Below the pieces are notes generated by a model. That model had not been told where the DNA came from, ran no database searches, and saw nothing but the letters and a program-made list of their open reading frames with translations. From contig JAIPIY010000002.1 in NCBI GenBank assembly GCA_021734445.1, forward strand, positions 32,786-96,785: a stretch of DNA of 64,000 nt, given 5' to 3'. The translations under genes and the position numbers were made by a program. Positions within the stretch are counted from its first letter, which is position 1. Every line of letters begins with the position of its first letter. Below are positions 339-45,323 of this stretch, piece after piece. Source of the stretch: Minisyncoccota bacterium. GTDB lineage: Bacteria > Patescibacteriota > Minisyncoccia > Phycocordibacterales > UBA1006.

Positions 339-468
339 GGTAAATAGGTTTAAAGGGTTAGTGAAATGAACAACTGCATGTTGCTCGTTTTTTCAACAAA
401 CTTTTGCGGAAAAAACGAGCAACACTGCTGTAAAAAGCCGATGTGAATGTGCGATATTTCTTGGATAT

Positions 469-497
469 ATAGTAGCATATATGACTATAGAAGTCAA
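469..497 (-). promoter_or_regulatory. sigma70 promoter for the 338 ORF
   Basis: TTGACT-17 nt-TACTAT with extended TG on the minus strand. Confidence 0.7.
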
Positions 498-547
498 ATC
501 TTTTCGATTCAAGTTCAAGAAATAATTGTAATATTTACAAATCCAAA

Positions 548-604
548 CCCCACCTTAATCCCTACCTTTGCCGGCGAGGCAGGCTCCCCTTGGTAAGGGG
601 AGGA
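548..604. repeat. Palindromic REP-like element with a nested second palindrome
   Basis: CCCCACCTTAATC[CCTACCTTTGCCGGCGAGGCAGG]CTCCCCTTGGTAAGGGGAGG. Confidence 0.65.
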
Positions 605-626
605 AGAACTACCCTATATATTTATT

Positions 627-663
627 TCTCCCCCTTTTCAAGGGGGGAGACTAAGAGGGGGTT
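627..663. repeat. REP-like palindromic element, inverted relative to the 548-604 copy
   Basis: TCTCCCCCTTTTCAAGGGGGGAGACTAAGAGGGGGTT; its reverse complement has the same CCCC-N-stem-loop layout. Confidence 0.6.
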
Positions 664-707
664 ATAGGTTATAGATGTTACAGATCAGAGTTTTCTTTCA
701 ATATAAA

Positions 708-733
708 AGATTCCCGCCTACGCGGGAATGACA
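708..733. repeat. ATTCCC-N8-GGGAAT (dRS3/REP-like) palindrome
   Basis: AGATTCCCGCCTACGCGGGAATGACA. Confidence 0.7.
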
Positions 734-758
734 ACCCCTACACCACATGTAGTTAAGA

Positions 759-2789
759 TTAAAGATTCCTTACTTCCCCATTTTTTTCCTGCAAGATACG
801 TATTTCATCTCGCAACAGTGCAGCGGTTTCAAAATCCAATAGCTTTACCGCTTCGTTCATTTCGTGCTCACGCACCTTGATATATTTTTTTAGTTTTTTT
901 GTATCTTTCAAAATAGATTCATCCAATGCAATTTGATCAGCCAATGTTTTTGAACGCAATGATTCAATAGTTTCGGTAATGTCTTTGATATTTTTTTCAA
1001 TAGTTTTTGGTGTGATGCCGTGTTTCTTGTTGTAGTCCACCTGAATAGAACGTCTCCGGTCTGTTTCATCGATCGCTTTTTTCATGGCATCGGTAATTAA
1101 ATCTGCGTACAAAATAACGCGACCATGAATATTACGTGCAGCACGTCCAATAGTTTGAATTAAAGATGTTTCTGAACGCAAAAAACCTGCCTTGTCAGCA
1201 TCCAAAATACCTATCAAAGAAACTTCTGGTAGATCCAAACCTTCACGCAACAGGTTTACTCCAACCAAAATATCATATACTCCTCGACGAAAATCGGTCA
1301 AAATTTGTATACGTTCCATAGTTTTTACATCACTGTGTACATAGGTGGATTTTATTTTTTTATCTTTGAGATAATCATTCAAATCTTCGGCCATTCTTTT
1401 TGTTAATGTTGTTGCCAACACACGACGCCCTGCGGTGATTTCTTTTTGTGCTTCGGCTATAAAATCATGCACCTGTCCCTGATATGCACCATTTTCACGT
1501 AGCGGGCGAATTTCAATCACTGGATCAATCAATCCGGTTGGACGAATAATCTGTTCTACGATTTGTTCACTGGTCGTTCGTTCCAGATTTCCCGGTGTTG
1601 CAGAAATATAGATAACCTGACCTATACGTTTTTCAAATTCTTCATAGCGAAGAGGTCGGTTATCTTTTGCACTGGGTAAACGGAAACCATGTTCAACCAA
1701 TGTTTTTTTACGTGAAGCATCTCCTGCATACATTCCTGATAATTGGGGCAACGTAACATGGGATTCATCAATAACGGTCAAAAAATCTGGTTTTCCATCT
1801 GGTGTGTGCGGAAAATATGATAACAATGTTTCTGGTGGATCACCTGCATTTTTACCAGACAAATGTCGAGAATAGTTTTCAATTCCAGAACAATACCCAA
1901 CTTCGCGTATCATCGCCAAATCATAGGTGGTTCGTCGTTGAATTCTTTCTGCTTCGAGATTCAATCCCTGATCTTTTAAATACTGAATTTGTTCTTCTAG
2001 TTCTTGTTGAATACTGATTAGTGCTTTTTCTTTTTTTGCACCATCCGTCAAAAAGTGTTTTGCAGGGAAAATAAAACATTCTGAAACAGTTTCCATAATA
2101 CGCGAAGAAACTACATCAACTACAGTAATACTTTCAATAACATCTCCTGTAAAAGAAATCACGCGCATTGTTGTTTCAGATACTGGCACAATTTCAACCT
2201 TGTTACCCAAAGAACGAAATGTTCCCGAAGATAAATCTGCGTTTGTTCTTTCGTAATGCACTTTTACTAATTTTTCCATCACTTCGCGTTTCGAGATTTT
2301 TTGTCCAACCTGTAATAACAAATGACTGTCTTTATATTCTTCGGGTGATCCCAAACCATAAATACATGATACTGACGCAACGATAATTACATCTTTTCGT
2401 GTTAATAATGCTTGGGTTGATGCGTGACGTAATCGATCTATTTCTTCGTTAATACTGGCATCTTTTTCAATATACGTATCCGTAATCGGCATGTATGCTT
2501 CGGGTTGATAGTAGTCATAGTAGGAAACAAAATAATGCACCGCATGTGTTGGGAAAAATTCGCGAAATTCCTGGGCCAATTGTGCCGCCAACGTTTTATT
2601 GTGTGCAATAACCAATGTTGGTTTTTCTATTTGGGTAATGACATTTGCCATGGTAAATGTTTTTCCTGTACCAGTAGCCCCTAAAAGAGTTTGTTTTTGT
2701 AAATCCTTTTTCAATCCATCAACCAATCCAGTAATGGCCTGCGGTTGATCCCCTGCTGGAATATAACTACTTTCAAGATTAAATATCAT
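759..2789 (-). CDS. uvrB: Excinuclease ABC subunit B
   Basis: GATGTGKT Walker A, YYDYYQPEAY beta-hairpin, DESH, C-terminal UVR domain; start placed at ATG 2789, 7 nt after TATAAT. Confidence 0.98.
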   Translation of the reverse strand: MIFNLESSYIPAGDQPQAITGLVDGLKKDLQKQTLLGATGTGKTFTMANVITQIEKPTLVIAHNKTLAAQLAQEFREFFPTHAVHYFVSYYDYYQPEAYMPITDTYIEKDASINEEIDRLRHASTQALLTRKDVIIVASVSCIYGLGSPEEYKDSHLLLQVGQKISKREVMEKLVKVHYERTNADLSSGTFRSLGNKVEIVPVSETTMRVISFTGDVIESITVVDVVSSRIMETVSECFIFPAKHFLTDGAKKEKALISIQQELEEQIQYLKDQGLNLEAERIQRRTTYDLAMIREVGYCSGIENYSRHLSGKNAGDPPETLLSYFPHTPDGKPDFLTVIDESHVTLPQLSGMYAGDASRKKTLVEHGFRLPSAKDNRPLRYEEFEKRIGQVIYISATPGNLERTTSEQIVEQIIRPTGLIDPVIEIRPLRENGAYQGQVHDFIAEAQKEITAGRRVLATTLTKRMAEDLNDYLKDKKIKSTYVHSDVKTMERIQILTDFRRGVYDILVGVNLLREGLDLPEVSLIGILDADKAGFLRSETSLIQTIGRAARNIHGRVILYADLITDAMKKAIDETDRRRSIQVDYNKKHGITPKTIEKNIKDITETIESLRSKTLADQIALDESILKDTKKLKKYIKVREHEMNEAVKLLDFETAALLRDEIRILQEKNGEVRNL

Positions 2790-2809
2790 GATGTGCATTA
2801 TACATGAAA

Positions 2810-2843
2810 ATACAAAGCCTGCGAACCACACGGTTCACAGGCT
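2810..2843 (-). terminator. Intrinsic terminator after the vWA gene
   Basis: 12-bp stem AGCCTGTGAACC/GGTTCGCAGGCT (G.U pairs only on the minus strand), then a T-rich tract. Confidence 0.65.
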
Positions 2844-2865
2844 GATATATAGATCGATCCAAATT

Positions 2866-3522
2866 TTACAAACACAAACCTCTTTTGCGAATCCCTTCTT
2901 TTAACGTTTCAACATCATTAAAAAAATAATTTCCACCTGAAAGTTTGAACAAGACATCATGACGTACTTCAGAAAATGGCTTTGGGGAAATTGGCCCAAT
3001 CTGCAAATTATCCCCCAAAGAAGGACTAATAGCACAAATCGTAATCCCAAATTTCTCACTTATGGTATTCGCCATAGCCAATGCTTGATATTCGTCATTT
3101 AAAACCCCATCAGTAATGATGATAATAATTCGATTTCGAGGATAGTAACTTATACTGTCTCTAAATAATGCCCCAGCAATACTTAAAGCGGGCGCAAGAT
3201 TTGTCTCGAAACTTTTTGCTTTTCGTTTAAAATACCAATCAACGATTTTTTGCAAAGAATCATACCTATGAGTTAATAACATTTCAAGATGTAAAACATC
3301 TACAAATGAGACCAAACCAAACCGTATTTTATTTTGCTCTGGTGGAATACCAGAAATTAATTGATCTACGGCAGATACAACAAATGACTCGTCACCATTC
3401 ATTGATCCTGAAAAATCACTAACAATCACAATATCTGCATAGAGACAAGGTGTTTCTTTTTGAGAATATCCTTGTATAAAACATAGGCAGAAAAATACAG
3501 GCAAAAGAACGTTGGTTTTCAT
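2866..3522 (-). CDS. Secreted von Willebrand factor A domain protein
   Basis: MIDAS DxSxS (VSDFSGSM), TNLAPAL, IIITDG; N-terminal signal peptide. Confidence 0.85.
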   Translation of the reverse strand: MKTNVLLPVFFCLCFIQGYSQKETPCLYADIVIVSDFSGSMNGDESFVVSAVDQLISGIPPEQNKIRFGLVSFVDVLHLEMLLTHRYDSLQKIVDWYFKRKAKSFETNLAPALSIAGALFRDSISYYPRNRIIIIITDGVLNDEYQALAMANTISEKFGITICAISPSLGDNLQIGPISPKPFSEVRHDVLFKLSGGNYFFNDVETLKEGIRKRGLCL

Positions 3523-3635
3523 GAGAAAGAGCTTTAGTTAATCTATTTTTAGATTACATGATATAGCTTTAAAACACAACAGGAAGAAAAATATGGCAAT
3601 ATTGTTATCTGTGTATACCGCCCAACAAGATACAA

Positions 3636-4853: not shown

Positions 4854-4860
4854 AGGATAA

Positions 4861-6745: not shown

Positions 6746-6763
6746 ATCTGTGTGCTTATCCTT

Positions 6764-8017
6764 CTAAACGGTAAATCGTGCTATAAATTCATCGTATGAT
6801 ACCAATTCACTATCTGCAGATGTTCTTTTTTTAATTTCGACTGATTCTTGTTGTACGGTTTTTGCGCTGACAACCACTCGGTACGGAATTCCCAACAAAT
6901 CAGCATCGGAAAATTTTTCTCCTGGAGAAACCCCTTTTCGATCATCAAACAAAACTTCAATATTTCTTTTTGTTAATTGTCCGTACAATTTTTCCGCCTG
7001 TGCGATAACTATTTCATCTTCTCCTAATACCAATACATGTATTTGAAACGGAGCAACTGATTCGGGCCAAACAAGACCCTTTTCATCAGAGAACTTTTCA
7101 GCGATGACACCAATCATACGGGTTATCCCAATACCATATGAACCAAGATGCACTGGTATTGTTTCTCCTTTTTCATTTTTGAAATACAGCCCCATTTTTT
7201 CACATTTTTCTGTGCCAAAATTAAAAATATTACCCACTTCTGCTGTTTTTACTTGTTCTAATTCTTCACGAGAGATATTCAAATCTTTCAAAGTTTTTTC
7301 GTTCAATACTTCTTCGTTTATTGCAATATTTTTTTCGCGATTGATATAAATAATATCTTCTCCTGCTTCACAAATTGTTTGAAATTCATGACTGAATTCA
7401 GTAAATGCACCACCCGCAGCAAAAGTAACAAACGTATCTTCACCAACACCTAATCTATCAAATACCTTTTTATATGCATCGATAGTTTTTTGATAAAACT
7501 TTTCATGCTGTTCTGCATCTGTCGAATAAGAATACATGTCTTTCATGACAAATTCTCTTCCACGCATCAAACCAGATTTTGCCCGTAATTCATTACGTAG
7601 TTTTGTCTGAAATTGATATACATATATCGGCAAGTCTCTGAAACTTGAAATATGATTTTTAATCATTTCCGTAATCGGTTCTTCATGTGACCATCCAAAC
7701 CCAACCTGTCCACCTGCATGCAATTCAGATTTAAACCAAATATCAACAATATCATCGCTCCAACGATCAGTAGAGGTCCAAACATCTTTTGATTGAATAC
7801 CTGTCATAATGAACTCTTGCCCTCCAAGGGCATTCATTTCTTCACGGATTATTTTTTTTATATTATCAACAACCCGGAAACCCAAAGGTAACAAGTCATA
7901 CGCTCCAGCCATTTCTTTGTGCACATACCCAGCACGGATTAATAATTGGGCATTTTTTGCCATCTCATCCGCTGGTGCTTCTTTTCGTGTTTTAGTAAAT
8001 AATTGGGTTTGTCTCAT
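6764..8017 (-). CDS. proS: Proline--tRNA ligase (short form, apparently without the INS editing domain)
   Basis: GLMRGREFVMKDMYS, EVGNIF, GSYGIG, anticodon-binding domain; start at MRQTQLF. Confidence 0.95.
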   Translation of the reverse strand: MRQTQLFTKTRKEAPADEMAKNAQLLIRAGYVHKEMAGAYDLLPLGFRVVDNIKKIIREEMNALGGQEFIMTGIQSKDVWTSTDRWSDDIVDIWFKSELHAGGQVGFGWSHEEPITEMIKNHISSFRDLPIYVYQFQTKLRNELRAKSGLMRGREFVMKDMYSYSTDAEQHEKFYQKTIDAYKKVFDRLGVGEDTFVTFAAGGAFTEFSHEFQTICEAGEDIIYINREKNIAINEEVLNEKTLKDLNISREELEQVKTAEVGNIFNFGTEKCEKMGLYFKNEKGETIPVHLGSYGIGITRMIGVIAEKFSDEKGLVWPESVAPFQIHVLVLGEDEIVIAQAEKLYGQLTKRNIEVLFDDRKGVSPGEKFSDADLLGIPYRVVVSAKTVQQESVEIKKRTSADSELVSYDEFIARFTV

Positions 8018-8171
8018 AACCCCCATACTACTTGAAAAATCCCTTTTGGTCAAAAGTATCTTGCGCAACAATTATTTGACTTTATTATAAACACATGATT
8101 AAATAAAAAAGAATCAAGGTGTCTGTGTTTGCAGAATACCCAATGGTTCATTTACATAACCTTACATAAAA

Positions 8172-8687
8172 ATGAGAACGATTCACTCACTCTCACCATT
8201 GTCTCAGAGTATCCTCGTCAGCAATCTTACATCTGGACGCATGGGCTACAGTTTTCGATTTCAAGGGGTTCTATTAGAGACTATTCCAGCATCTGAAAAA
8301 AGTCTACCAGTGCTAGAAATAATCGTAGACCTGGCAAAGGTTACCACGGAGAAATCTATACCTGTCCTGCTTCAAAGATTACCGGGGTGCAACAACCTTT
8401 CTGGTAATGAATTAATTCAGGAATCAATCAAATTACTTCCATCAGAAGAAGAGCTTCTTGGCGGAGTTATCCAACAAATCCTCATGTTAGAGCGTGGAAC
8501 TCAAACCATGGAGACTATGCTTGAAAAAATGCACCAAAAATTCTTCCTCTGCGCCAAAGACGATCATATTCAATTGGTCGAGTATGTTTCCCTTTTTAAT
8601 GTTTGGATGATTACCTCTAAGCCAATTGATCTTGACTATCAATTGGGAGGAAGTATGGGATCTTCTTTGCTTCTGGTAACGCAGTAA
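8172..8687 (+). CDS. Hypothetical orphan protein
   Basis: 171-aa ORF with upstream TTGACT (8076) promoter and a downstream hairpin. Confidence 0.7.
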   Translation: MRTIHSLSPLSQSILVSNLTSGRMGYSFRFQGVLLETIPASEKSLPVLEIIVDLAKVTTEKSIPVLLQRLPGCNNLSGNELIQESIKLLPSEEELLGGVIQQILMLERGTQTMETMLEKMHQKFFLCAKDDHIQLVEYVSLFNVWMITSKPIDLDYQLGGSMGSSLLLVTQ

Positions 8688-8706
8688 CCCAACATGTTCG
8701 CATGAA

Positions 8707-8742
8707 AGCCCCTTCAACTCTTATCGAAGGGGCTGTTTTTTT
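8707..8742 (+). terminator. Intrinsic terminator
   Basis: AGCCCCTTC/GAAGGGGCT stem followed by GTTTTTTT. Confidence 0.75.
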
Positions 8743-8879
8743 ATTTTACAATCAATAAAAAGAAACTCTTTTCCATAATTCTTTTTTCAAACATACCATA
8801 CTTTGACGGTCGTCAAAACATGGTATTATTTACCAAAGCATTTTTGTCGAGTTACATATAATAAAAATGCATTACGGGA

Positions 8880-9774: not shown

Positions 9775-9798
9775 TTTTATTCTTAATTTAAATTTATT

Positions 9799-27746: not shown

Positions 27747-27774
27747 TGTTACCAGGGATTTTTGATTTTTATAT

Positions 27775-27804
27775 AAAAAACCCGCCAGTACTGGTACTGA
27801 CGGG
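27775..27804 (-). terminator. Terminator after the repeat helicase
   Basis: CCCGTCAGTA-CCAG-TACTGGCGGG-TTTTTT on the minus strand. Confidence 0.8.
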
Positions 27805-27835
27805 GAGCTTGCCAAGCTCAATTTATGGCATGTCT

Positions 27836-29971
27836 TTATTTTTTCCTTTTACACAAATCTTTCAAGATAGCCACAAGATCAGGTGCGTAGTGTTCAGCTG
27901 TCCGTGGACCAATTAAGTATACTCTGAACCATTGCGGATGATCTTTGCGATATCCCTCGGCAAGATTCTTTATGAGTACAAACTTACCTTGTACATCACT
28001 AAACTTTGAAATCTGGTTAGCTGTATACCAACCTTCTGGAGCCCGGGATTTTAGAATGCATAGATCTTTGAGAATCGCTACAAGATCGGGTGCGTAGTGT
28101 TCCGTGAAATTTGATCCTGTTTTACCCATCTTAAACCAATCAGAGTGTTCCGCTCGATACTCTTCGGCAAGCTTTTTGATTCGCACACTATGACTCAGTA
28201 CATCACCCATTTTTGAAATCTGGTTAGCTGTATACCAACCTTCAGGGGAATCCTGCCGAACACGGGCCTCCTTCAATATGTCAACAAGATCAGGGGCGTA
28301 GTGCTCAGTAAAGTTATTACCTGAAAAATACATCCCGAACCAATCAGGATGATTAGATCGGTGGATTTCAGCAAGGTTTTTAATCAGCACATCGCCACTC
28401 CAAACATCATCCATTTGACCAATTTGACTAGCCGTCATCCACCCCTCAGGAGCTTGTTTTTTTCGAGCACATTGCTTTTTCAGAATAGCCACAAGATCAG
28501 GTGCGTAGTGTTCAGTCCAATTAGGGCCTGATAAGTACATCATAAACCATAAGGAACATCTGCTACGGTATATCTCAGCAAGAGCCTTAACCTGATCCAA
28601 TTGACCTTGAACATCATCCATTCGTGTGATCTGACTAGCTGTAAACCATCCTTCCGGAGCTCTTTCTCGAACATATTCATCGGTATATTCTTTCACAACT
28701 CTCATCACCTCTTCTTCTGTGACATGGACTGATTCAAGAATCTCATCACACAGTTCCTGTTCAATATCAGAAGTAGAGATAAGGCGCTTGCGCATTCCTT
28801 TCATTTCTCTTTCTCCTAATACTTTAGGCATCACCATAGAATTGCCTTCCAGAACCTGTGAATAGAAAACCTGATCTCTGCCTTCGAACATCAACTGCAC
28901 AACATATGCAATTTTGTCTGGCATCAATTTCCACAAGCGTGTTGCCCTACCTGCCCCCTGAGTCAAACCGACAAGCGATCCAACAGGATAAGCAAATATG
29001 ACTCCACAAACACCTTCATCATCGAAACCAGTTTTAGGAACATCAACGCCCACAAGAACTTCAAATTTGTTGTCCTTGAAGTCATCGAAAAGATCTCTTC
29101 GATCATCCCTTGACATGGCACCTTCGATCAGTCGTGCAGTGACACCTTGATAAACCAATTCTTCTACAAGATCGCGTCCTTGTTCCACCGTTAATGTAAA
29201 CATGACGAATCGGAGACCTTTTGGTTGAAACAATTTCTTGTACAAACGCGTAGCAGCAATGTTTCCACCTTGGCGGATAATATCGCTACTTATTCGTTCT
29301 GTGTATTCAGACGTTGCCTCACCTTGCAATCTTCCAGCGATCTTGATCTTGACCTTGCCGGTCATAAACTGAATACCTGAAAGCATCCCTACTTCAACGG
29401 CTTCGGAAACTGAAATTCTGTGAACTTCAAGCCCTAGCCATTCTTTGAGGTTTTTCTCGTCAGAATATTCAGGTGTGGCGGTAAAGCCAATGATGATGGC
29501 GTGCTGTTGTTCATCCACCTTTGCCCGTCTTACCGGGCCCAGCGCAAGATGAGCTTCATCAAGAAATATGACCGAATACTGTTTCAACTCGTCATTACTT
29601 AATTTAATGAAAGTTTGGTACATCATCACGGTCACATGTTGACCGTTGCTTTTCCAACCTCCACCACGAAGCCCAACAACAAGCCGTACCGCAAATTTTG
29701 TAAATTCATTCTTCATCTGCGAAAGCAGATCAATCTTTGGTACAAGAATCAAAATCTTGATATCTTGTGCTCCATTGATAATAGCATCAGCAATCGTGGC
29801 CTGAAGGAATGATTTACCTATTCCTGTTGGCCCTGAGATGTACATAGTACGGAATCCGTCTATGATAGCCTGGCGTATTTCGGTGTAGAACGTTTCTTGT
29901 CCTTTACGAAATACGTTGATAGGAACATACGAAAGTAAGTTCGCTACAATTAACATGAATCGATTTTCCAT
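27836..29971 (-). CDS. SF2 DEAH-box (ResIII-like) helicase with four C-terminal tandem repeats
   Basis: GPTGIGKS, DEAH, TAT, QGAGRATR; four copies of (A/S)PEGWxTAxQI...EHYAPDLVxILK. Confidence 0.88.
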   Translation of the reverse strand: MENRFMLIVANLLSYVPINVFRKGQETFYTEIRQAIIDGFRTMYISGPTGIGKSFLQATIADAIINGAQDIKILILVPKIDLLSQMKNEFTKFAVRLVVGLRGGGWKSNGQHVTVMMYQTFIKLSNDELKQYSVIFLDEAHLALGPVRRAKVDEQQHAIIIGFTATPEYSDEKNLKEWLGLEVHRISVSEAVEVGMLSGIQFMTGKVKIKIAGRLQGEATSEYTERISSDIIRQGGNIAATRLYKKLFQPKGLRFVMFTLTVEQGRDLVEELVYQGVTARLIEGAMSRDDRRDLFDDFKDNKFEVLVGVDVPKTGFDDEGVCGVIFAYPVGSLVGLTQGAGRATRLWKLMPDKIAYVVQLMFEGRDQVFYSQVLEGNSMVMPKVLGEREMKGMRKRLISTSDIEQELCDEILESVHVTEEEVMRVVKEYTDEYVRERAPEGWFTASQITRMDDVQGQLDQVKALAEIYRSRCSLWFMMYLSGPNWTEHYAPDLVAILKKQCARKKQAPEGWMTASQIGQMDDVWSGDVLIKNLAEIHRSNHPDWFGMYFSGNNFTEHYAPDLVDILKEARVRQDSPEGWYTANQISKMGDVLSHSVRIKKLAEEYRAEHSDWFKMGKTGSNFTEHYAPDLVAILKDLCILKSRAPEGWYTANQISKFSDVQGKFVLIKNLAEGYRKDHPQWFRVYLIGPRTAEHYAPDLVAILKDLCKRKK
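27850..28670 (-). repeat. Intragenic tandem repeat, 4 units of 204-207 bp
   Basis: AAGATCRGGKGCGTAGTGYTC at 27875, 28082, 28286 and 28493. Confidence 0.9.
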
Positions 29972-30124
29972 TGTATTAAACTTTCAACGAGCAGATCATT
30001 TGTTCACCGCTTGATATACAATATGTCATATTATATATCATCTGTCAATACATACACACACATGTAATTAAAATCCCTTGCTTTTTAAAAAAGATATGTT
30101 AATATAGATAAAAACGTTCAGCAC

Positions 30125-30418
30125 ATGATAGAAATGTTCATCCTGCTGTCAGTCGCATCCGCAGCTGACCTGCCCAGGATGATTCATCGCGATCATCCTG
30201 AAATTGTAGTTACGGTTCTTTCCATCAATGAGGCTCGACTGAAATATCCCCAAGGCAACGATTGTTGCATTTTGGTGGGATTAGTTGAATCTCCTATTAT
30301 TTTTCAAGAATATGGGAATATTGTTATTTTCTCCGACCAGCAACCCGAAGCTATTTGTGCCACGGGCTGGAAGGGAAATGTTCTCGAGCTGTTACGGTTG
30401 TCGCTGAGACCACCCTGA
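30125..30418 (+). CDS. Hypothetical orphan protein
   Basis: Promoter TTGCTT-16-TAATAT (30078-30105) and its own terminator. Confidence 0.6.
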   Translation: MIEMFILLSVASAADLPRMIHRDHPEIVVTVLSINEARLKYPQGNDCCILVGLVESPIIFQEYGNIVIFSDQQPEAICATGWKGNVLELLRLSLRPP

Positions 30419-30423
30419 CGACT

Positions 30424-30463
30424 GGGCCATGAGGTTTTCGAACTTCATGGCCCCTCTTTTTTA
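30424..30463 (+). terminator. Terminator with a UUCG loop
   Basis: GGGCCATGAGGTT-TTCG-AACTTCATGGCCC followed by CTCTTTTTT. Confidence 0.8.
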
Positions 30464-30468: not shown

Positions 30469-30505
30469 AAAAAAATTCCCGCCATACGCTATTGCGCATG
30501 ACGGG
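30469..30505 (-). terminator. Terminator for the 31019 ORF
   Basis: CCCGTCATGCGC-AATA-GCGTATGGCGGG-AATTTTTT on the minus strand. Confidence 0.75.
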
Positions 30506-30527
30506 TTATTCAATCAAACTGATTCAC

Positions 30528-31019
30528 TTAGTCTTTAAGACAATATACAGAATCGGGAACATCTTCCCAATATTGTTTTCTGGCTTCATTTTCTGGATCA
30601 GAACAAAGTTCTTCCAGTAATCGAAGTGACTCCTGTTTACCATCGGGCCTGAGGTGTTCCTCCTGAAAAAGAATCACTGTTTTCTTTTCCCTGATCTCAG
30701 GAACAAGAGATTCTAAATAGAAAAGCCTGCAAATCTTCTTTTTATTATGCTCTTTTATCTCCCAATAAAAAGAGCTTGAATCCATTGCAATAATTTCAGA
30801 CAAAAGAAGAATATCGACATACCCAATACTGGGATCTGGATCTTTTTTATCATGATCAAGGAAGGAGCCTGTGGGGTCTCCATAAAATTTATTCACAGTC
30901 CACATTGTATTCACTATTCCATTACGAGTCCTTGCAAAATTTCCAGATGGCACAGAACAAGCTTCCCATCCGATAGTCTGTTGATTAATTAGCTCAATCT
31001 TTTCTAGTAGATCTTTCAT
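30528..31019 (-). CDS. Hypothetical orphan protein
   Basis: 163 aa; promoter TTGCAT-17-TAATGT; its own terminator. Confidence 0.7.
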   Translation of the reverse strand: MKDLLEKIELINQQTIGWEACSVPSGNFARTRNGIVNTMWTVNKFYGDPTGSFLDHDKKDPDPSIGYVDILLLSEIIAMDSSSFYWEIKEHNKKKICRLFYLESLVPEIREKKTVILFQEEHLRPDGKQESLRLLEELCSDPENEARKQYWEDVPDSVYCLKD

Positions 31020-31132
31020 TGTGTAGGTGCGTTAGTTTAAATACACATTACAATAATGAAATTATATATGCAACCCTTGACAAAAAAAAAAGAAATTGTG
31101 TTAAATATAAAAGAACCAAAAAACAACTGCAC

Positions 31133-31462
31133 ATGAACACAATTGAACGCCCTTGCTTTACCGTCTGTGAAAATGGGTCTGACCATGGACACTTTATTAT
31201 TCCATCAATCCAAGGAATGAGCTTTCCAATCTATTGCAAAGAGCATGCTCTTTTGTGCTTGAATGGATTAATCCGAAATGAGATTGTCGATTCAGCATTC
31301 AAAACAGCGATCATGCAAGATATCAATACCTGCAATCTGCCAAACACGGAAACCCCAGAAGTACGCAGAAAAGCAAAGAAGATATCAGATATGATTTCTG
31401 TGATTCTGCGAGCAGCTCACGAGAAAAGCTCATTTGATGACAGGGGTATCTGCAAAAATTGA
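31133..31462 (+). CDS. Hypothetical orphan protein
   Basis: Start MNTIERP; TTGACA at 31077; terminator at 31486-31517. Confidence 0.65.
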   Translation: MNTIERPCFTVCENGSDHGHFIIPSIQGMSFPIYCKEHALLCLNGLIRNEIVDSAFKTAIMQDINTCNLPNTETPEVRRKAKKISDMISVILRAAHEKSSFDDRGICKN

Positions 31463-31485
31463 CACACTGTCAGTTACCAAAGAAG

Positions 31486-31517
31486 CCCGAACCGTTATAC
31501 GGTTCGGGTGTTTTTTT
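31486..31517 (+). terminator. Intrinsic terminator
   Basis: CCCGAACCGT-TAT-ACGGTTCGGG-TGTTTTTTT. Confidence 0.8.
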
Positions 31518-31519
31518 AT

Positions 31520-32197
31520 CTATTTCTCCCCTTTTCGCCAATTTTCTATTTTTTTATGATCACCAGATAATAATACTTTTGGGACCTTATAGTTTTTACC
31601 CTGCCAAGGTAAAATTTCTGGTCGTGTATACATTTCATGACTGGAAATACGATTTTCTTCGATTGATTCTTGTTTACCTAATACACCAGGAATTTGTCGC
31701 GCCATAACATCTATCATCACCATCGCAGCCAATTCCCCACCTGTCAGTATAAAATCCCCAATAGAAATTTCTGTAGCGCGTAATGCTTTTTTTACACGAC
31801 TGTCGATTCCCTCGTACCGCCCACAAATAATGATGATATCTTCCAAACCTTTTTTCGTAACCATCTTTTGTGCATAGGTATTGGTAAACATTTCACCACC
31901 CGCAGCGGTGATAAAAACCTTTGCGTTTTTCTTTTTTGACTGAATTTTTTTTACCGCTTCTAAAATAGGTTCGGCACGTAATATCATACCTGGACCACCT
32001 CCGTATGGTTTTTCATCCACCTGCGCAGAAATATTTCCATCTGGCCAAACTTTGCGATATTTACCACGAACAAAAGAACGCAATGGATAACACTTGATTG
32101 CAATTTTTTTATTTTTTATCGCGCGCCCTAAAATCGATTCATTAATATATGAATCGAACATCTCGGGAAATATGGTGATAATATGAAATGTAATCAT
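31520..32197 (-). CDS. trmD: tRNA (guanine37-N1)-methyltransferase
   Basis: PYGGGPGM, CGRYEGID, SIGDFILTGGE. Confidence 0.97.
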   Translation of the reverse strand: MITFHIITIFPEMFDSYINESILGRAIKNKKIAIKCYPLRSFVRGKYRKVWPDGNISAQVDEKPYGGGPGMILRAEPILEAVKKIQSKKKNAKVFITAAGGEMFTNTYAQKMVTKKGLEDIIIICGRYEGIDSRVKKALRATEISIGDFILTGGELAAMVMIDVMARQIPGVLGKQESIEENRISSHEMYTRPEILPWQGKNYKVPKVLLSGDHKKIENWRKGEK

Positions 32198-34241: not shown

Positions 34242-34895
34242 TTAATAAATAAAAATGACCGACCCAGTTGCCAGGATCGGTCTTTGTGCAACTCTGCGAT
34301 TTTTTGCAATACGCACCGTTGCCAATTCAGGTGCAGGACTAAATACCCCAGAAATCGCTGAGTCGATAGATTCGACAAATGATTTCCACCATTTTTTAAC
34401 CTTACTGGTTTTGTGTGGTTTTGGGGTGCAGGAGGCAAAGTAGAAACCCAGAACTATAAACATATGTTCTAATTTCAACAAAATTGCCTTAATTACCATA
34501 AAAGATTTTTCTGGATGGGAAGTCTCTACGCCAATGGGCGCAAACACTACCCACAGAAAAAACATTGAGAACACAATCCTGAATAAAGACCACTTTATTG
34601 CTAAAAAATTTCCAAAATGGGGGTTATCCAAGCATACTTCCTCTATATATTTCATGATTTGCATCCAGCTAAAAACTATAGCTATCCAGGCTAGATCAAA
34701 TAAAGTACCAATGATTACGAAAAAATCTATCTCTTTTACCATACTCAAAGAAATTATTCTGGCCCAACCAAGCAAACATACCGACAACACGAAACAAATT
34801 CGCGCAATCGTGAAATTGTTAATCCCAAACCATTCTTGAAACCAATCAGAAACGTCTTGAAATTTATTCAGCAGAATCATGTCAATTGAATGCAT
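34242..34895 (-). CDS. Hypothetical membrane protein (orphan unit)
   Basis: 4 TM helices, ASCTPKP; TTGACA upstream; hairpin at 34257-34282. Confidence 0.7.
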   Translation of the reverse strand: MHSIDMILLNKFQDVSDWFQEWFGINNFTIARICFVLSVCLLGWARIISLSMVKEIDFFVIIGTLFDLAWIAIVFSWMQIMKYIEEVCLDNPHFGNFLAIKWSLFRIVFSMFFLWVVFAPIGVETSHPEKSFMVIKAILLKLEHMFIVLGFYFASCTPKPHKTSKVKKWWKSFVESIDSAISGVFSPAPELATVRIAKNRRVAQRPILATGSVIFIY

Positions 34896-34969
34896 CTTTA
34901 TTTGTGTGTTAAGTGAAAGACCAAATGAGAATTGATTCTATAATTACATATTATACACACTATGTCAAT

Positions 34970-37279: not shown

Positions 37280-37289
37280 AAAAAAATAA

Positions 37290-37631: not shown

Positions 37632-37721
37632 ATGCGTATATACTATAGTATTTTTTACAAAATAACCACATAATAAGAACTATTTTTGTAATATTTAACC
37701 AAGATAAATAAAAACCCCTAC

Positions 37722-38315
37722 CTAATCGGTAAAGGCTTTGGAGAGTTTTTCTCCATATTTTTTTATAGACTCATTCACGACAGAGTAGCCACTTTCTGGT
37801 ATATCAATCTCTGGACCAATGGTTGGAATAGAAATATGATCATTAACCTTTTTTTGTGGAATTTTTCTTGACCCACCATAATCAACAAGGATAATACCTT
37901 TGTTCGTTTTTATCCAATCCTTGGAAAGAACAGTATGATCTCCTCCTGCAAATCTCATTTCATCTTCAGAAAGGACCCGCTTGAGTCTCCTCATAACTTC
38001 ATCAAAAGAGACAATCTCTCCCTCGATTTTCTCACTGATTACTAACCAGTTGGTTATCTTGATGTAAGATGGAGCCAAGAAATCCAAAGGAGTTTGCTTG
38101 TACAAATTAAATTCAGTTTTATTTGAATGCAAGCCAGCCTGAATGCGATTTAGTAAAAGCTTACCATGGTTTTTAGTAATACTTTTTTCTGTTTCGTCAA
38201 ACTCAAAAAGATAAGTCCATCTCACTCTTATATACGCAAAAATATCTCTTGGAAATTTTAAAGCGTACGGTCCAATAAAAATTACTTGTCTGGTTGTTCC
38301 GTCTTTTATGTTCAT
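37722..38315 (-). CDS. Hypothetical protein, possible kinase-like fold
   Basis: GTTRQV..ALKFP, N.TE..LY, LVDYG; promoter TTGACT-16-TATAAT. Confidence 0.6.
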   Translation of the reverse strand: MNIKDGTTRQVIFIGPYALKFPRDIFAYIRVRWTYLFEFDETEKSITKNHGKLLLNRIQAGLHSNKTEFNLYKQTPLDFLAPSYIKITNWLVISEKIEGEIVSFDEVMRRLKRVLSEDEMRFAGGDHTVLSKDWIKTNKGIILVDYGGSRKIPQKKVNDHISIPTIGPEIDIPESGYSVVNESIKKYGEKLSKAFTD

Positions 38316-38445
38316 TTTTTCTAAGATCTAATCTTGGTTTATTATACTACATCTATAATAAAAGTCAACATTAGAAATTCAAACAACTAAAAAGATTGAC
38401 TCGTATATCGTACATCAACTTTTTTTATAAAAATGAAAAGAATCT

Positions 38446-39459: not shown

Positions 39460-39596
39460 GTATTCATTGTAGCACGTATATATCTTGTTATTTCATTATT
39501 GGTCAATATAAACTTATCTTTTTTCTTTTACGATTTTTAACAAAATAAACCCCAACAGGTGGTCCAGGCTATCGTTTCTTGCATTATCAGGAAATA

Positions 39597-39625
39597 TTGA
39601 CATTATACTATAAAAGTGCTATAAT
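39597..39625 (+). promoter_or_regulatory. Perfect consensus sigma70 promoter
   Basis: TTGACA-17-TATAAT with extended TG. Confidence 0.85.
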
Positions 39626-39680
39626 ATAATAAGACAGTGAACGCATATATCTGTCAATAATTGGACATTCACAATTGAAA

Positions 39681-40115
39681 ATGAATCTCATGAAAACTTT
39701 GAAAACCATTTGGGTAATTACAGCAATCGTTTCATCTGTTGGTAGCTTGGTATTGATTGGATTCTCCATATCAAAGCCAGAACTTCATCTTGTACAGTTT
39801 CTTATAAATGTCATGTTCAAATTGATGGCAATCACCAGCATCCTGCCGGCAATTACCTTCTTTTCACAACTCGCTTACCAAGGTGATTTTTCACACATGT
39901 CATCATCTCTTGTATGCGAGGTTTCTATTAAAATCATATCATTAGTTATGGCAATCTCGTTTCTTGGAGTGTTTTCAATCGTGATACCAATTCCATTTTT
40001 GGCAAATATGCATGCATTTCCGGTCGGACAATTACCAATTCATAACATTGTAATTTCTGCCGTTGTTGGAATCATCGGAGTTTTGGCCATAAGAAAATCG
40101 GGGGCTGTCCTGTAG
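39681..40115 (+). CDS. Hypothetical 4-TM orphan protein
   Basis: Hydrophobic ORF downstream of the consensus promoter. Confidence 0.7.
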   Translation: MNLMKTLKTIWVITAIVSSVGSLVLIGFSISKPELHLVQFLINVMFKLMAITSILPAITFFSQLAYQGDFSHMSSSLVCEVSIKIISLVMAISFLGVFSIVIPIPFLANMHAFPVGQLPIHNIVISAVVGIIGVLAIRKSGAVL

Positions 40116-40131
40116 GACAATCCCAGCAACC

Positions 40132-40169
40132 AAAAAGGTTGACACACACATCGTGCGTCAACCTTTTTT
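40132..40169. terminator. Bidirectional terminator
   Basis: AAAAAGGTTGAC...GTCAACCTTTTT between convergent genes. Confidence 0.75.
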
Positions 40170-40183
40170 ATTTATTATACCTA

Positions 40184-40402: not shown

Positions 40403-40484
40403 ATGTATATAATAGCATATATTTATTAATTACAATGTAATTATTTCTCTTTTTTACACAAGATACTAGGGATTACAACCAATA

Positions 40485-42308: not shown

Positions 42309-42319
42309 AATTTTGTATT

Positions 42320-42342
42320 AAAAAAACCGCTTTTCGCGGTTT
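42320..42342 (-). terminator. Attenuator terminator between the leader peptide and the HelD-like gene
   Basis: AAACCGC-GAAAA-GCGGTTTTTTT ending 11 nt before the start codon. Confidence 0.75.
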
Positions 42343-42397
42343 ACGAGATCCTATTTGGGCCGATTTTATTTGAGTAATAATGTAATCCAAGTAACAT
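42341..42397 (-). CDS. Putative leader peptide MLLGLHYYSNKIGPNRIS
   Basis: ATG 7 nt after TTGCAT-17-TAAGAT; the stop codon overlaps the base of the terminator. Confidence 0.6.
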   Translation of the reverse strand: MLLGLHYYSNKIGPNRIS

Positions 42398-42529
42398 AAA
42401 AAACATCTTATCAAAAGATGCTTTTTAATGCAAGGGGCAACAATCCGTCAGTAACAATTATATTTTAAAAAGTACCCTAATTAACCCTTAACCTTCTAGT
42501 CTAATATTGACACTATAATCCTAGAAAAA

Positions 42530-43288
42530 TTAATTATTTAAACCACCTAACACAAGATTGATCATCATATCATCTTGGTCTTCCCTTTCATCGTTTTGTT
42601 CTTCCCGCTTCATTCTTTGATAAATTTTTTCCGTTTCTTCTTTAAATTTTTCACCTTGTTCACCTTTTAGCGTTTTGGCGTGTTCTATTCGTCTACCTAA
42701 AATTTTCATATTGCGTCGTCGCCAAAATTTTCTATCCTCTCTGTCTAATTCTCTTTTTGTCATCCTATCATAGTCACCAACCAAAATTCCCATTTCACGA
42801 ACTTCACCATTCCCATAAGTTGCCTTATAAAGAAATCTGTTATTTTCGGCAATCTCACCAAAGGGTACAACAAGACAAAATTCTGCAACTTCGAGACCCG
42901 TTGCTTTTTTATTTACAAGAGGTATTTCACTTATTATATATAGAAAATATTTACGGAATTGAAACCACTCATCTTTTGTGATTTCTTCAGGTAAATTATT
43001 TTCAATTAAAAAACTTTGTAATTCTTCTCTGAAAGTTTCTAGGGCAATTTTAGCTATACCTTCTGTGTTATCAAAATTAATTGTTTTTAGAAAATCAATA
43101 GCATCTTTTCTATCAAGTTTAGTATGTAAAACCCAACAACAATACATATATAAAGTAGAATATCTCTTAGAAGGAATTTGATCTAATTCTAACTTTTTCC
43201 TGATTTCACTAAGAATATAAATTACCTGTTTCTCTGAACGTATTAGAGATTTTAATTCTTTTGTGAGATTATTTAGTTTTTGATTCAT
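42530..43288 (-). CDS. Hypothetical protein in an AT-rich islet
   Basis: 252 aa, very AT-rich; YILSEIRK...LYMYCCWVLH. Confidence 0.7.
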   Translation of the reverse strand: MNQKLNNLTKELKSLIRSEKQVIYILSEIRKKLELDQIPSKRYSTLYMYCCWVLHTKLDRKDAIDFLKTINFDNTEGIAKIALETFREELQSFLIENNLPEEITKDEWFQFRKYFLYIISEIPLVNKKATGLEVAEFCLVVPFGEIAENNRFLYKATYGNGEVREMGILVGDYDRMTKRELDREDRKFWRRRNMKILGRRIEHAKTLKGEQGEKFKEETEKIYQRMKREEQNDEREDQDDMMINLVLGGLNN

Positions 43289-43360
43289 GCAATGATTTTA
43301 ATATAAATTATTAAGTTTTATACTTATTATATTAACTACTGATGATAATTCTACTTAGAG

Positions 43361-44257
43361 TTAAGCCGAAACACAGCCATTACATGATGCAGGCATATTT
43401 AGAGTCTCGAACTTTCCTGTTGTATCAGCTGATTCATTATCACTTGTAGAATATATTTCAAAAGTGTATTTTGTATTTGGTTCAAGCTTAAACTCCAAAC
43501 TATGCTCTCTAGTATTTTCCGAAGGAGATTTTAGGGATTTTATTATTTGACTAGAGTCAGTTTTGTATATTTTTATCCTACTATCTGACTTGTAATTTGT
43601 TTCCCAGCTAAGTGTACACGTATCAGCCAGACAACCCTGTCTTGTTACTGTTATTTTCAGAGGGTTTGATTTTGTTGTAAAATTAAAATTTTGATCCTTC
43701 CATGCATTATTAGCAATAGCAGTGATTGTACCAATATAATATAAATCACTTTCCAAACCATCAATATCTACATAGTGTATTGTTCCAACACCACGCTTGG
43801 AAAAATAACTCTTACCTTCAAATAATATCTTTGACTCACTCGGAATATTTGTTTTCCAGTTTACTCTTACTGAATTTGATTCTTCATCAATTGAAACATC
43901 AGATATAGACAAATCAACGGTAGGAGAAATTACAACTATTGGAGTAGCGGGTGGGGTATAAAGAGATACAGCAGTTATTGTGGGTGTCGATTTTATAGGG
44001 ATAGAGGTTTTCTTTTCTTCAAAATTAACCTTAGGAGTAATTTCCATTTTATCTTCTTGTAAACTTCTTTCTTTTGATGATTCTTCTTCAACTGGTATAA
44101 CCAGAGTGGTTTGTTGTACTTGTTCTTTTGTTGAAACCTTTTTAGCCCATGGCCAATGCCATGTAAATGGATTCCACCATGCAGCAAAAGTAATTTGAGG
44201 TATTACTAAAACAATAAACAGGAACATAAAAATAGTTTTTTTCAAATGTTTAGTCAT
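43361..44257 (-). CDS. Exported protein with two fibronectin type III-like repeats
   Basis: Signal peptide followed by AAWWNPFTW; VNWKTNIPSESKI and LSWETNYKSDSRI repeats. Confidence 0.75.
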   Translation of the reverse strand: MTKHLKKTIFMFLFIVLVIPQITFAAWWNPFTWHWPWAKKVSTKEQVQQTTLVIPVEEESSKERSLQEDKMEITPKVNFEEKKTSIPIKSTPTITAVSLYTPPATPIVVISPTVDLSISDVSIDEESNSVRVNWKTNIPSESKILFEGKSYFSKRGVGTIHYVDIDGLESDLYYIGTITAIANNAWKDQNFNFTTKSNPLKITVTRQGCLADTCTLSWETNYKSDSRIKIYKTDSSQIIKSLKSPSENTREHSLEFKLEPNTKYTFEIYSTSDNESADTTGKFETLNMPASCNGCVSA

Positions 44258-44388
44258 ATATTTTTTCTCGAGATAATCTCAATATAATAATATTAACATA
44301 TTAAGAATTATACAACAATTATTATCTCTATCTGCCAGCTCTCTCTTTGTGGTCAGGAATAATTCAAAGTAGTTTTAATTTGCTCGTG

Positions 44389-44460
44389 TGACCCCACGGA
44401 GGATCGAACTCCGATTCTGAGAATGAGAATCTCATGTCCTAGCCATTAGACGACAGGGCC
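44389..44460 (-). tRNA. tRNA-Glu(CTC)
   Basis: GGCCCTG...TGAGA-TT-CTC-AT-TCTCA...CGGAG-TTCGATC-CTCCG-TGGGGTC-A; no encoded CCA. Confidence 0.92.
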
Positions 44461-44583
44461 TGAATAACATACCCAGTGTACGTATTTTTATGGTCTTTCG
44501 CAAGTATACTATATTATTATTTTCTTCTTTTTATTCTTTATTCCCTCTTTACTTTTTACTTCTTTCTCTTTACTATAAACCCT

Positions 44584-45045
44584 ATGAAATTACACATCCT
44601 GGCGATTGGCAAGAAAAAATCAGACTACGACGCTATGATTGCCGAATACCAAAAACGCATCGTGTCCCCTTTTTCCCTATCGTTGGAAATTATAGAACCA
44701 TTGGGAATTGATAACCCCACACAATGCAGAACAAAAGAATCTGAAAAACTGGCAACCAAACTACAACCCGGAGATTATATAATTGCATTAGATGAAACTG
44801 GTAAAGATTTTACCACTGTTGCATTTTCACATCATATCGAAAAACAAATGCATACGGGTATCAAAAGAATGGTATGCATTATCGGCGGTGCATATGGCAT
44901 TGATGCACAATTGCAATCACAGGCACATTTGGTACTACGATTGGGTTCTTTTACGTTACCCCACGAACTGGCACGTTTGGTTTTAGCAGAACAATTGTAT
45001 CGTGTTACCAATTTACTGGGTGGTGGAAAATATCATCATGTATAA
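44584..45045 (+). CDS. rlmH: 23S rRNA pseudouridine1915-N3 methyltransferase
   Basis: LDETG, IIGGAYG, LGSFTLPHELARLVLAEQLYR, YHH. Confidence 0.95.
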   Translation: MKLHILAIGKKKSDYDAMIAEYQKRIVSPFSLSLEIIEPLGIDNPTQCRTKESEKLATKLQPGDYIIALDETGKDFTTVAFSHHIEKQMHTGIKRMVCIIGGAYGIDAQLQSQAHLVLRLGSFTLPHELARLVLAEQLYRVTNLLGGGKYHHV

Positions 45046-45081
45046 AAAAGCCCCCACCACTGATTAGTGACGGGGGCTTTT
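45044..45081. terminator. Bidirectional terminator (G.U pairs favour the minus strand)
   Basis: AAAAGCCCCCGTCACT...AGTGGTGGGGGCTTTT on the minus strand. Confidence 0.8.
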
Positions 45082-45097
45082 CTGGCCCAGAATATCC

Positions 45098-45229
45098 TTA
45101 TGACGGAATTCTTAATCGAAAAAGGAAATTCTTTCCCAAAGATTTTTTCTGACCAGAAAATTTGGCATGCATCCGTGCCAGGATGCGAAAATGTTGTCTT
45201 GTTGATACATTAGACGGTAATTTCTTCAT
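45098..45229 (-). CDS. Unannotated 43-aa basic small protein
   Basis: MKKLPSNVSTRQHFRILARMHAKFSGQKKSLGKNFLFRLRIPS; promoter TTGACT-18-TATGAT; matching terminator. Confidence 0.55.
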   Translation of the reverse strand: MKKLPSNVSTRQHFRILARMHAKFSGQKKSLGKNFLFRLRIPS

Positions 45230-45323
45230 GTGCGTAGTTTGAATGTTTAAAGCCATCATACAATATTTCTTATACAACAGTCAACCATCCAAGCAACCCT
45301 ATGAAACCATCCCGAATCATAGT

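Follow-up and report, generated by a model that had tools for sequence, protein, structure and literature searches.

A boxA-like motif in the leaders of stand-alone, fast-evolving genes of a Minisyncoccota bacterium

Do small orphan genes scattered through a Patescibacteriota genome form an expression class of their own, and is the motif in their leaders a boxA, the site bound by NusB-S10 in rRNA leaders? The question was raised by a 64,000-nucleotide (nt) stretch of a Minisyncoccota bacterium of the UBA1006 lineage (assembly GCA_021734445.1, contig JAIPIY010000002.1, positions 32,786 to 96,785; the whole stretch is termed the window). In it, a sequence-only reading had singled out eleven stand-alone orphan open reading frames (ORFs), named here by the window position of their start, seven of them with a shared boxA-like 12-mer in leaders lacking a Shine-Dalgarno (SD) sequence. 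We examined the source genome (G000; 672 kb, 11 contigs, 90% complete), where a dicodon model called 488 typical-codon and 198 atypical-codon genes, 80 of the latter with a Pfam family, along with the sister species G001 (627 kb read) and two members of genus g12 from the same family, G012 (698 kb) and G021 (272 kb analysed). Promoters, start sites, and leader lengths are sequence predictions throughout. Genome-wide, a distinct expression class of about 30 atypical-codon, mostly orphan genes is real, and a boxA-like motif is enriched in its leaders; we consider the chances evenly balanced that these leaders hold a Nus site that functions in regulation.

Genes of the class combine a TTGAC(A/T) -35/-10 promoter, a short leader, and an intrinsic terminator, and their promoter type is that of the rRNA genes. 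Under a fixed promoter rule the class numbers 32 genes in G000, 34 in G001, 48 in G012, and 14 in G021, while the same rule was passed by 20/305, 18/295, 27/350, and 7/112 typical first genes, respectively. TTGAC stood upstream of 39 of the 93 Pfam-less atypical first genes of G000 versus 30 of the 277 typical ones. Terminators were found for 20/32 class genes versus 23/70 sampled core genes in G000, and for 31/47 versus 21/70 in G012. The cargo is mixed (n = 32, G000): seven proteins have an N-terminal signal or anchor, nine have at least two membrane helices, and eight have a Pfam family. The remark that these ORFs use more C/G-ending codons held up, with a median third-position G+C of 0.38 against 0.26 in 44 window core genes, a partly circular comparison; the G+C excess at fourfold sites was seen in G000 and G001 (0.31 versus 0.26 and 0.24) and not in G012 (0.30 versus 0.29). 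Many core genes look leaderless, as had also been proposed, with a -10 box 11-14 nt before the ATG in 117 of the 277 typical first genes of G000. Core genes within apparent operons show, genome-wide, T-12, A-11, T-7, and G at -16 to -14 upstream, as if many internal genes owned leaderless extended -10 promoters.

All eight 12-mers listed by the sequence-only reading, including one ahead of tRNA-Ile, were recovered at their coordinates and strands. We counted mismatches to the boxA consensus reported for Escherichia coli (PMC5725501) and Bacillus subtilis (PMC13753749). A site with at most three mismatches occurred in 49 of the 93 Pfam-less atypical leaders of G000, compared with 23.0 ± 3.9 after dinucleotide shuffling and 20 for the reverse strand, and a site with at most two in 15 of them (2.9 shuffled); strict sites (at most one mismatch) were rare (2/93). 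Core first genes gave 86/277 at three mismatches (70.5 ± 7.9 shuffled) and a small excess at two (18/277 versus 9.6 ± 2.2).

Leaders from other orders were selected by promoter and AGGAGG only, which avoids overlap with the A-run described below. Matches were obtained in 53/251 and 71/201 genomes, none in the order of G000; 30 genomes of each were taken with one locus per genome, and 58 of the 60 leaders were long enough to use, 52 of the 58 genes having no Pfam family. Nineteen of these leaders carried a site with at most two mismatches, versus 1.8 ± 1.2 in shuffles and 7 on the reverse strand, and five a site with at most one (0.1 expected). The de novo motif of this set, WGHWCYTTNAMA, reached a log-likelihood of 109 compared with 37-50 in six shuffles. 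Each half of the set recovered the motif and found it in the held-out half (8/30 versus 1.4 in shuffles; 5/27 versus 1.3, with a shuffle maximum of 5). Together with the motif found in the leaders of G000 itself (G2 74%, C5 84%, T7 89%, T8 77%), it was thus recovered de novo three times.

Applied to the family, the cross-order profile reached at least 8 bits in 12/31 class leaders of G000 (0.6 ± 0.8 expected; one of the twelve, at 30079-30090, may be a -35 box) and 6/33 of G001 (0.7 expected), versus 0/16 and 0/15 leadered core genes and 0-1/105 leaderless genes, so that the enrichment lies in orphan and not in core leaders, as had been suggested. Column-permuted profiles attained the G000 count in 0/500 cases, and in 1/500 with the A-run fixed. 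Within the window, the profile picked exactly the seven quoted leader sites as best (5.9-12.9 bits; four of at least 8), and 3/11 units (31019, 31133, and 45229) had no good site. The pattern G..C.TT.A occurred in 26/89 pooled leaders against 2.9 expected (8.9-fold), an enrichment that fell to about 1 when G2 was changed and to 1.5-2.5 when C5 was changed. NusB-NusE is reported to read boxA bases 1-8, to need G2, C5, and a pyrimidine at position 6, and to make no base-specific contact at base 9 (PMC3177189). The information in the motif, at G2, C5, U7, and U8, therefore coincides with the NusB-S10 contact bases. The missing G9, which we had entertained as an argument against boxA, was dropped on the same structural account. 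If a boxA is defined by G2, C5, pyrimidine 6, U7, and U8 within the 5' portion of a transcript, the class conforms statistically, with few leaders at strict consensus.

A family boxA profile built from 24 16S leaders is stricter at G9 than the mRNA form; it scored the tRNA-Ile site at 14.5 bits and reached at least 6 bits in 6/31 G000 class leaders (1.2 expected). The 23S leader of G000 has a looser variant, AGATCGTTTACA, of the same form as the mRNA motif by eye. G2 is missing from the 16S site as well as from the mRNA motif of genus g12, whose 23S site retains it. The 16S (C2:17819-19347) and 23S (C10 near 30000) genes are unlinked in G000 and have separate TTG-type promoters and boxA-like sites.

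The lack of an SD sequence in these leaders proved true but is no mark of the class, because the whole order is without an anti-SD. SD-like words precede 8/488 typical and 4/198 atypical genes of G000, its 16S gene ends GGATCTCATCAAAT, and the 28 16S 3' ends obtained from 30 loci in the order all lack CCTCC; anti-SD loss has been reported for a subgroup of Parcubacteria (PMC9297842). Relatives of the same genes in other orders do have the SD. Of 12 distant loci read from the family of the 34895 protein, most combined the same promoter-leader-terminator build with a GGAG-type SD (by eye), so the class must have existed before the anti-SD was lost. Class leaders in all four genomes instead carry YYAAAMC at about -16 to -10 and A at -3, with A at -13/-12 in 54-92% of them. 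An A-run with A-3 is reported to promote initiation in Flavobacterium, and the Bacteroidia A-run determinant has been proposed to bind bS1 (PMC6847099). An alternative SD was discarded: pairing of leaders with the changed 16S tail of G000 was no better than in shuffles.

The description of these genes as fast-evolving was borne out between G000 and G001, whose core proteins are 93% identical (392 reciprocal pairs). Identity is 46% for the 19 leadered atypical pairs, whose upstream DNA is preserved as well as that of core first genes (0.81 versus 0.80). Among family-restricted genes sorted by promoter type only, the 23 leadered ones are 54% identical (16 fall under 70%), compared with 90% for the 36 leaderless ones (4 under 70%; p = 6e-7), with median fourfold-site divergences of 0.48 and 0.29. 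Leaders are better kept than promoter spacers (0.89 versus 0.76). Most of the proteins retain their frame and length and hence are under some selection; relaxed or diversifying selection, perhaps with allele exchange, fits better than A-specific mutagenesis. G012 and G021 (core 64% identical; 4 gene-class pairs) are too distant for a rate comparison. The suggestion of an insertable cassette class, taken as recent insertion, was not supported: 8/11 window units sit in place in G001 at 46-93% identity (338 lies outside this comparison), and no junction repeat was seen at the G001 sites of the two absent units, 3522 and 38315. In contigs of a third relative, about 95% alike in the core, the middles of the genes at 30528 and 34242 are replaced and 45048-45299 is skipped.

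The machinery that would read a boxA is largely in place. nusB, about 900 bp outside the window, is present along with nusA, nusG, and rpsJ, and bS1 is also encoded. NusB occurs in 194/201 genomes of the taxonomic class; that of G000 is intact, aligning over 3-133 with E. coli NusB, and the four genomes of the family have Asn at the position of E. coli D118. The E. coli D118N exchange is reported to lower the dissociation constant of NusB-NusE for the non-consensus lambda nutR boxA almost tenfold and to raise that for rrn boxA threefold (PMC2800207). No boxA-like site was found before nusB itself. Rho (PF07497), whose termination activity is blocked at rrn operons and triggered at suhB, was found in 0/101 searched genomes of the taxonomic class and a search for SuhB (PF00459) in G000, at its 90% completeness, returned none, so classical antitermination is unlikely.

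Paceibacteria-type Patescibacteria thus appear to run two tiers of expression. Housekeeping is largely leaderless, with the -10 box 5-8 nt before the ATG, and the second tier comprises some 30-50 small, lineage-restricted genes per genome in stand-alone units, each with an rRNA-type promoter, a 15-70-nt leader, and an intrinsic terminator. These units are mostly inherited in place and only occasionally gained or lost as a whole; their promoters and leaders are kept, but their proteins change at several times the rate of other lineage-restricted genes. The leader ends in AGGAGG in orders with an anti-SD, and in this order in an A-run at -14 to -11 plus A-3, as in Bacteroidia. Binding of the motif on nascent RNA by NusB-S10, as at rRNA and tRNA-Ile leaders, we regard as somewhat probable. 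With its site placed 13-46 nt ahead of the start codon and in many cases reaching into the initiation A-run, bound NusB-S10 could then keep the 30S subunit or bS1 off, much as in suhB regulation but without the Rho step; granted binding, such translational gating would be about an even bet, by analogy with suhB, whose translation is reported to be repressed by a leader boxA even 100 nt from the SD (PMC5725501, PMC10931766). Translation of the accessory set would track the free NusB-S10 pool and hence the rate of rRNA synthesis. The full proposal, that NusB-S10 without Rho acts as a global growth-coupled switch on a strongly transcribed, fast-evolving accessory tier set apart from leaderless housekeeping genes by mRNA architecture, is offered tentatively, as possible but doubtful.

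Several observations weigh against a NusB-S10 site. The motif is degenerate, most leaders lack it (about a third have it), and several sites are the 3' arm and T-run of a leader hairpin. With the last 15-16 nt of the leader excluded, at most two mismatches were found in 3/21 leaders versus 0.5, the signal largely overlapping the start-proximal end. The sites are no better conserved between G000 and G001 than the rest of the leader (67/72 versus 181/204; p = 0.37; six pairs). No G000 class leader (0/31) reached 9 bits on the 16S-leader profile, and the cross-order profile was not enriched in genus g12 (1/46 in G012, 1/14 in G021) though class and NusB are kept there. Some members of the 58-leader set are related, and one pair is nearly identical. 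Bacteria other than E. coli may often have Asn118. SuhB, which went unfound in G000, is part of the E. coli complex.

A serious alternative, though one that we rate as rather unlikely, is that the motif is a bS1 translation enhancer. In a cell whose mRNAs are mostly leaderless, those with leaders would need a 30S landing site, which a U-rich stretch and the A-run behind it would supply; the resemblance to boxA would stem from the known affinity of S1 for boxA, and NusB would play no part. In E. coli the rrnB boxA is reported to be targeted by S1 and to work as an A/U-rich enhancer (PMC2176067); bS1 is encoded in G000, the A-run at -14 to -11 occurs in all four family genomes and matches the Bacteroidia determinant (PMC6847099), and genus g12 retains the A-run form without G2. 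Yet leadered core genes, expected to be the neediest, lack the motif (0/16, 0/15), the motif is equally strong where a full SD exists, and the specific excess of G2 and C5 is what NusB contact predicts. The two accounts may also be one switch. S1 and NusB-S10 reportedly compete for boxA, a finding attributed to Mogridge and Greenblatt in 1998. A different outcome of binding, in which NusB-S10 acts on transcription by loading an rRNA-type elongation complex for read-through of leader hairpins or resistance to pausing on poorly translated or untranslated RNA, seems unlikely to us. It would suit promoters that match those of rRNA genes, the order of hairpin then boxA in unit 338, as in the rRNA leaders of this lineage, and six G000 units in which a GGGCG-type hairpin with a T-run about 20 nt before the ATG overlaps the site; the rrn complex has also been reported to interfere with intrinsic termination (PMC13753749). 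It has to contend with the missing Rho (0/101), with short single genes whose strong intrinsic terminators (20/32 versus 23/70 in core) processive antitermination would undo, and, in that hairpin subfamily, with a site that would fall inside the terminator, too late for complex loading.

Two further accounts concern the origin of the units and of their divergence. That they are phage-like morons or mobile cassettes, with a promoter-leader copied from an rRNA or tRNA leader and boxA as a passenger, is very unlikely, despite their moron-like anatomy (own promoter and terminator, deviant composition), the clean absence of 2/11 window units from G001 with two further gaps in another relative, and look-alike leaders before unrelated ORFs. 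Most units (8/11) are in place in G001, the only tyrosine recombinase in the genome lies on another contig, and a passenger would not retain G2 and C5 across orders and unrelated genes. A phage or defence origin of the class was rejected: PHROGs matched 8/86 and PADLOC 4/39 class proteins, all through general enzyme or helix-turn-helix domains, and a search of viral contigs for the 34895 family found none. Targeted mutagenesis of transcripts, for example by stray reverse transcription from a diversity-generating retroelement (DGR) with the leader motif marking RNAs for it, strikes us as the least credible account. Divergence does begin at the start codon and run through the 3' untranslated region (0.64 identity versus 0.79 in core; 9 and 31 pairs), with raised fourfold-site divergence, and the genome has a reverse transcriptase (C6:240438-241418) and three template/variable repeat pairs with A-specific mismatches (C1:300-887, C4:304-862, C6:240438-242948), two of whose targets (C4:761-1366, C6:242283-242948) carry class-like leaders. 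Nevertheless, change at A is not in excess (A-involving pairs 55% versus 62% in core), the A deficit at fourfold sites is just 2-3 points, the leaders, though part of the transcript, have diverged less than the promoter spacers, fourfold-site divergence is raised equally in divergent core genes (0.49), and the long pieces listed from three runs of the same study differ by 0-1, though contigs drop rare variants. None of the three repeat pairs falls in window units, and the missing class-wide A bias led us to reject whole-gene DGR mutagenesis.

In the window, all eleven ORFs exist as claimed, 45229 (-) being merely 43 amino acids (aa) long. The claim of sigma70-like promoters is correct in that a -35/-10 pair precedes every unit, but the TTGAC(A/T) form is confined to 338, 8172, 29971, 31133, 34895, 38315, 39681, and 45229, with weaker pairs at 3522, 30125, and 31019. 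A hairpin with a T-run lies downstream of each unit (that of 3522 read by eye), in line with the claim of own terminators; the strand orientation of G.U pairs was inspected by eye alone. The term orphan fails for 3522, which has a vWA Pfam domain, and for 29971, a superfamily 2 (SF2) helicase.

Unit 338 (1..497, -) encodes a 156-aa orphan ORF that extends beyond the window edge. Behind its promoter (TTGACT-17-TACTAT, 497-469, -) lies a leader of about 124 nt with a long hairpin (~425-378), the boxA-like TGTTCATTTCAC (372-361), and YTAAAC at -16 to -11; the terminator is about 10-55 nt beyond the stop, outside the window. Look-alikes of the hairpin (378-425, -; GCTCGTTTT...AAAACGAGC) precede other ORFs in G001 (L112:3482, L077:9249), which suggests a reusable leader. 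Unit 3522 (2820..3579, -) encodes a 218-aa secreted-type vWA protein (3522-2866) with a weak promoter (3579-3551), the boxA-like AGCTCTTTCTCA (3533-3522), and a hairpin terminator near 2845-2820 (approximate); the whole unit is missing between tgt and uvrB in G001. Unit 8172 (8076..8745, +), a 171-aa orphan (8172-8687) with TTGACT at 8076, the boxA-like GGTTCATTTACA at 8145-8156, and a terminator ending near 8735-8745, is in place in G001 at 78% aa identity.

The 711-aa SF2 helicase of unit 29971 (27772..30048, -) has C-terminal repeats. The unit carries the best site in the window, TGCTCGTTGAAA (29993-29982; 12.9 bits), behind TTGACA-17-CATATT (30048-30020) and ends in a terminator at 27804-27781; it is in place in G001 (85% aa). 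Three small orphans follow. Unit 30125 (30011..30460, +; 97 aa; 66% in G001) has an ambiguous promoter (30011-30041 or 30078-30105), a candidate site TGCTTTTTAAAA (30079-30090) that may belong to the -35, and a terminator at 30424-30453. Unit 31019 (30470..31073, -; 163 aa, 31019-30528; 57-60% in G001) has TTGCAT-17-TAATGT (31073-31045) and a terminator at 30505-30478, with no good boxA site. Unit 31133 (31077..31520, +; 109 aa) has TTGACA at 31077, a bidirectional terminator (31485-31509), and no boxA site; its protein has one relative (89%) among 5.8 billion proteins.

Unit 34895 (34242..34968, -) encodes a 217-aa membrane protein behind TTGACA-17-AATTAT (34968-34940) and the boxA-like TGGTCTTTCACT (34923-34912), with a terminator at 34282-34257. 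Its reading frame passes through the terminator hairpin (34242-34330, -) and reaches 360 aa in G001, and identity with the G001 ortholog is 88%, 22%, and 85% in residues 1-34, 35-150, and 151-215, respectively. Distant family members occur in 18/400 genomes of the taxonomic class; a metagenome scan gave one locus for the family, and such a scan gave none for the 33377 protein. Unit 38315 (37704..38368, -), missing at the corresponding G001 site, encodes a 197-aa protein (38315-37722) behind TTGACT-16-TATAAT (38368-38341) and the boxA-like AGATCTTAGAAA (38329-38318), with a terminator at 37739-37711. The protein has kinase-like fold neighbours at template-modelling scores of 0.43-0.53, a lead only, and adjoins an unnamed 763-member atlas cluster that is commonest in Minisyncoccota. 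Unit 39681 (39597..40175, +), a 144-aa membrane orphan, has a perfect TTGACA-17-TATAAT (39597-39625), the boxA-like TGGACATTCACA (39662-39673), and a terminator at 40133-40175. Its G001 ortholog is 46% identical, yet the boxA-like site is the same; a search of 400 genomes of the order gave no credible match, only two weak hits with stops. The 43-aa basic peptide of unit 45229 (45040..45284, -; peptide 45229-45098), identical at 40/43 aa in G001, has TTGACT-18-TATGAT (45284-45255), a terminator at 45092-45040, and no good boxA site.

The tRNA-Ile(GAT) unit (53880..54027, +) has the promoter TTGCGA-17-TATAGT (53880-53908) and the exact Bacillus-type boxA TGATCTTTGAAA (53934-53945; consensus as given in PMC13753749). 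An 18-nt near-copy of the tRNA-Ile 5' end (53916-53933, +) stands ahead of boxA and tRNA, also in G001. An Rfam search of the window returned three tRNAs and nothing else. Among neighboring genes, prolyl-tRNA synthetase (6764-8026, -) is 65% identical to its G001 ortholog while its neighbours are at 81-99%, and allele replacement is likely; the ATP synthase operon (47135-53652, -) had no match in the G012 DNA read (94% complete).

Elsewhere in G000, a subfamily of leaders (C2:1683, C2:20643, C4:98747, C6:63721, C6:204571, C8:10454) has a GGG(C/T)G...(C)GCCC hairpin with a T-run about 20 nt before the ATG, preserved in G001. Overlapping the boxA-like site, this structure resembles a leader terminator or attenuator. 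Scanning the genome collection for the GGGCGA hairpin leader gave 34 mixed loci, and the 14 inspected were not clearly one element. Several Saccharibacteria records (L161, L166, L168, L172, L175, L180, L187) show a conserved promoter, a two-hairpin leader, and a strong SD before a 64-66-aa membrane peptide.

A large share of genes in the candidate phyla radiation (CPR) are orphans with no functional handle. Should the global-switch proposal be true, it would represent the first case of mRNAs forming a boxA regulon on a genome scale, and a leader code would flag host-contact and conflict genes among CPR "dark matter" from sequence alone. Rho is the textbook opponent of NusB, and the retention of NusB in nearly all genomes of the taxonomic class though Rho is gone raises the question of its role there. 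A sequence tag with a named candidate reader makes both the orphan-tier and the NusB questions testable, and an order without anti-SD is a natural experiment that separates translation elements (SD or A-run) from boxA. New in this work are the held-out motif test across orders, the form without an SD, and a rate comparison with controls. We found no paper on this gene class in the literature on CPR/Patescibacteria leaderless genes, orphans, anti-SD, boxA, and NusB/Rho, as covered mostly outside subscription journals and without supplements. The boxA sites reported before protein genes concern few genes per genome, with Rho (PMC5725501, whose genome list is of gamma-proteobacteria only).

Set beside known systems, the units resemble phage morons, as these are described in PMC7067206, in that each brings its own promoter and terminator, sits between conserved genes, and deviates in codon use; unlike morons, they are chromosomal, flanked by housekeeping genes, mostly vertical, and matched to phage by general domains only. 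Integron cassettes are promoterless and attC-arrayed beside an integrase, whereas the units are dispersed with their own promoters, a judgment that rests on these traits and the lone recombinase elsewhere. The initiation region described for Bacteroidia (A-3, A-6, A-12, A-13; Baez et al. 2019, PMC6847099) is alike in the A-run at -14 to -11, the A-3, and the lack of an SD; according to the same account Bacteroidia keep an anti-SD sequestered by bS21/bS18/bS6 and use the A-signal genome-wide, whereas in this order the 16S gene no longer has an anti-SD and the signal is mostly a mark of the accessory tier. Closest among mRNAs are the boxA leaders of suhB (E. coli/Salmonella), a Citrobacter ParE-like toxin, rpsJ, and prsA (Baniulyte et al. 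2017, PMC5725501), likewise with boxA less than 50 nt from the start codon; NusB, NusE, NusA, and NusG are shared with G000, and the position of the site suits translational repression. As reported there, those genomes have 0-7 perfect sites, mostly at Nus genes, with SuhB and Rho-dependent termination as output, whereas in G000 the site is degenerate and belongs to roughly one in three of the 30-50 orphan genes, with Rho and SuhB not found. The rRNA leader boxA (E. coli UGCUCUUUAACA; B. subtilis AUGAUCUUUGAAA, PMC13753749; structure in PMC3177189) shares contact bases and promoter type with the units, whose cargo is instead a short mRNA with its own terminator and of which only few have a boxB-like hairpin. 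The 16S-leader boxA keeps G9, which the mRNA form mostly lacks, and the B. subtilis form reported in PMC13753749 stands exactly before tRNA-Ile in G000.

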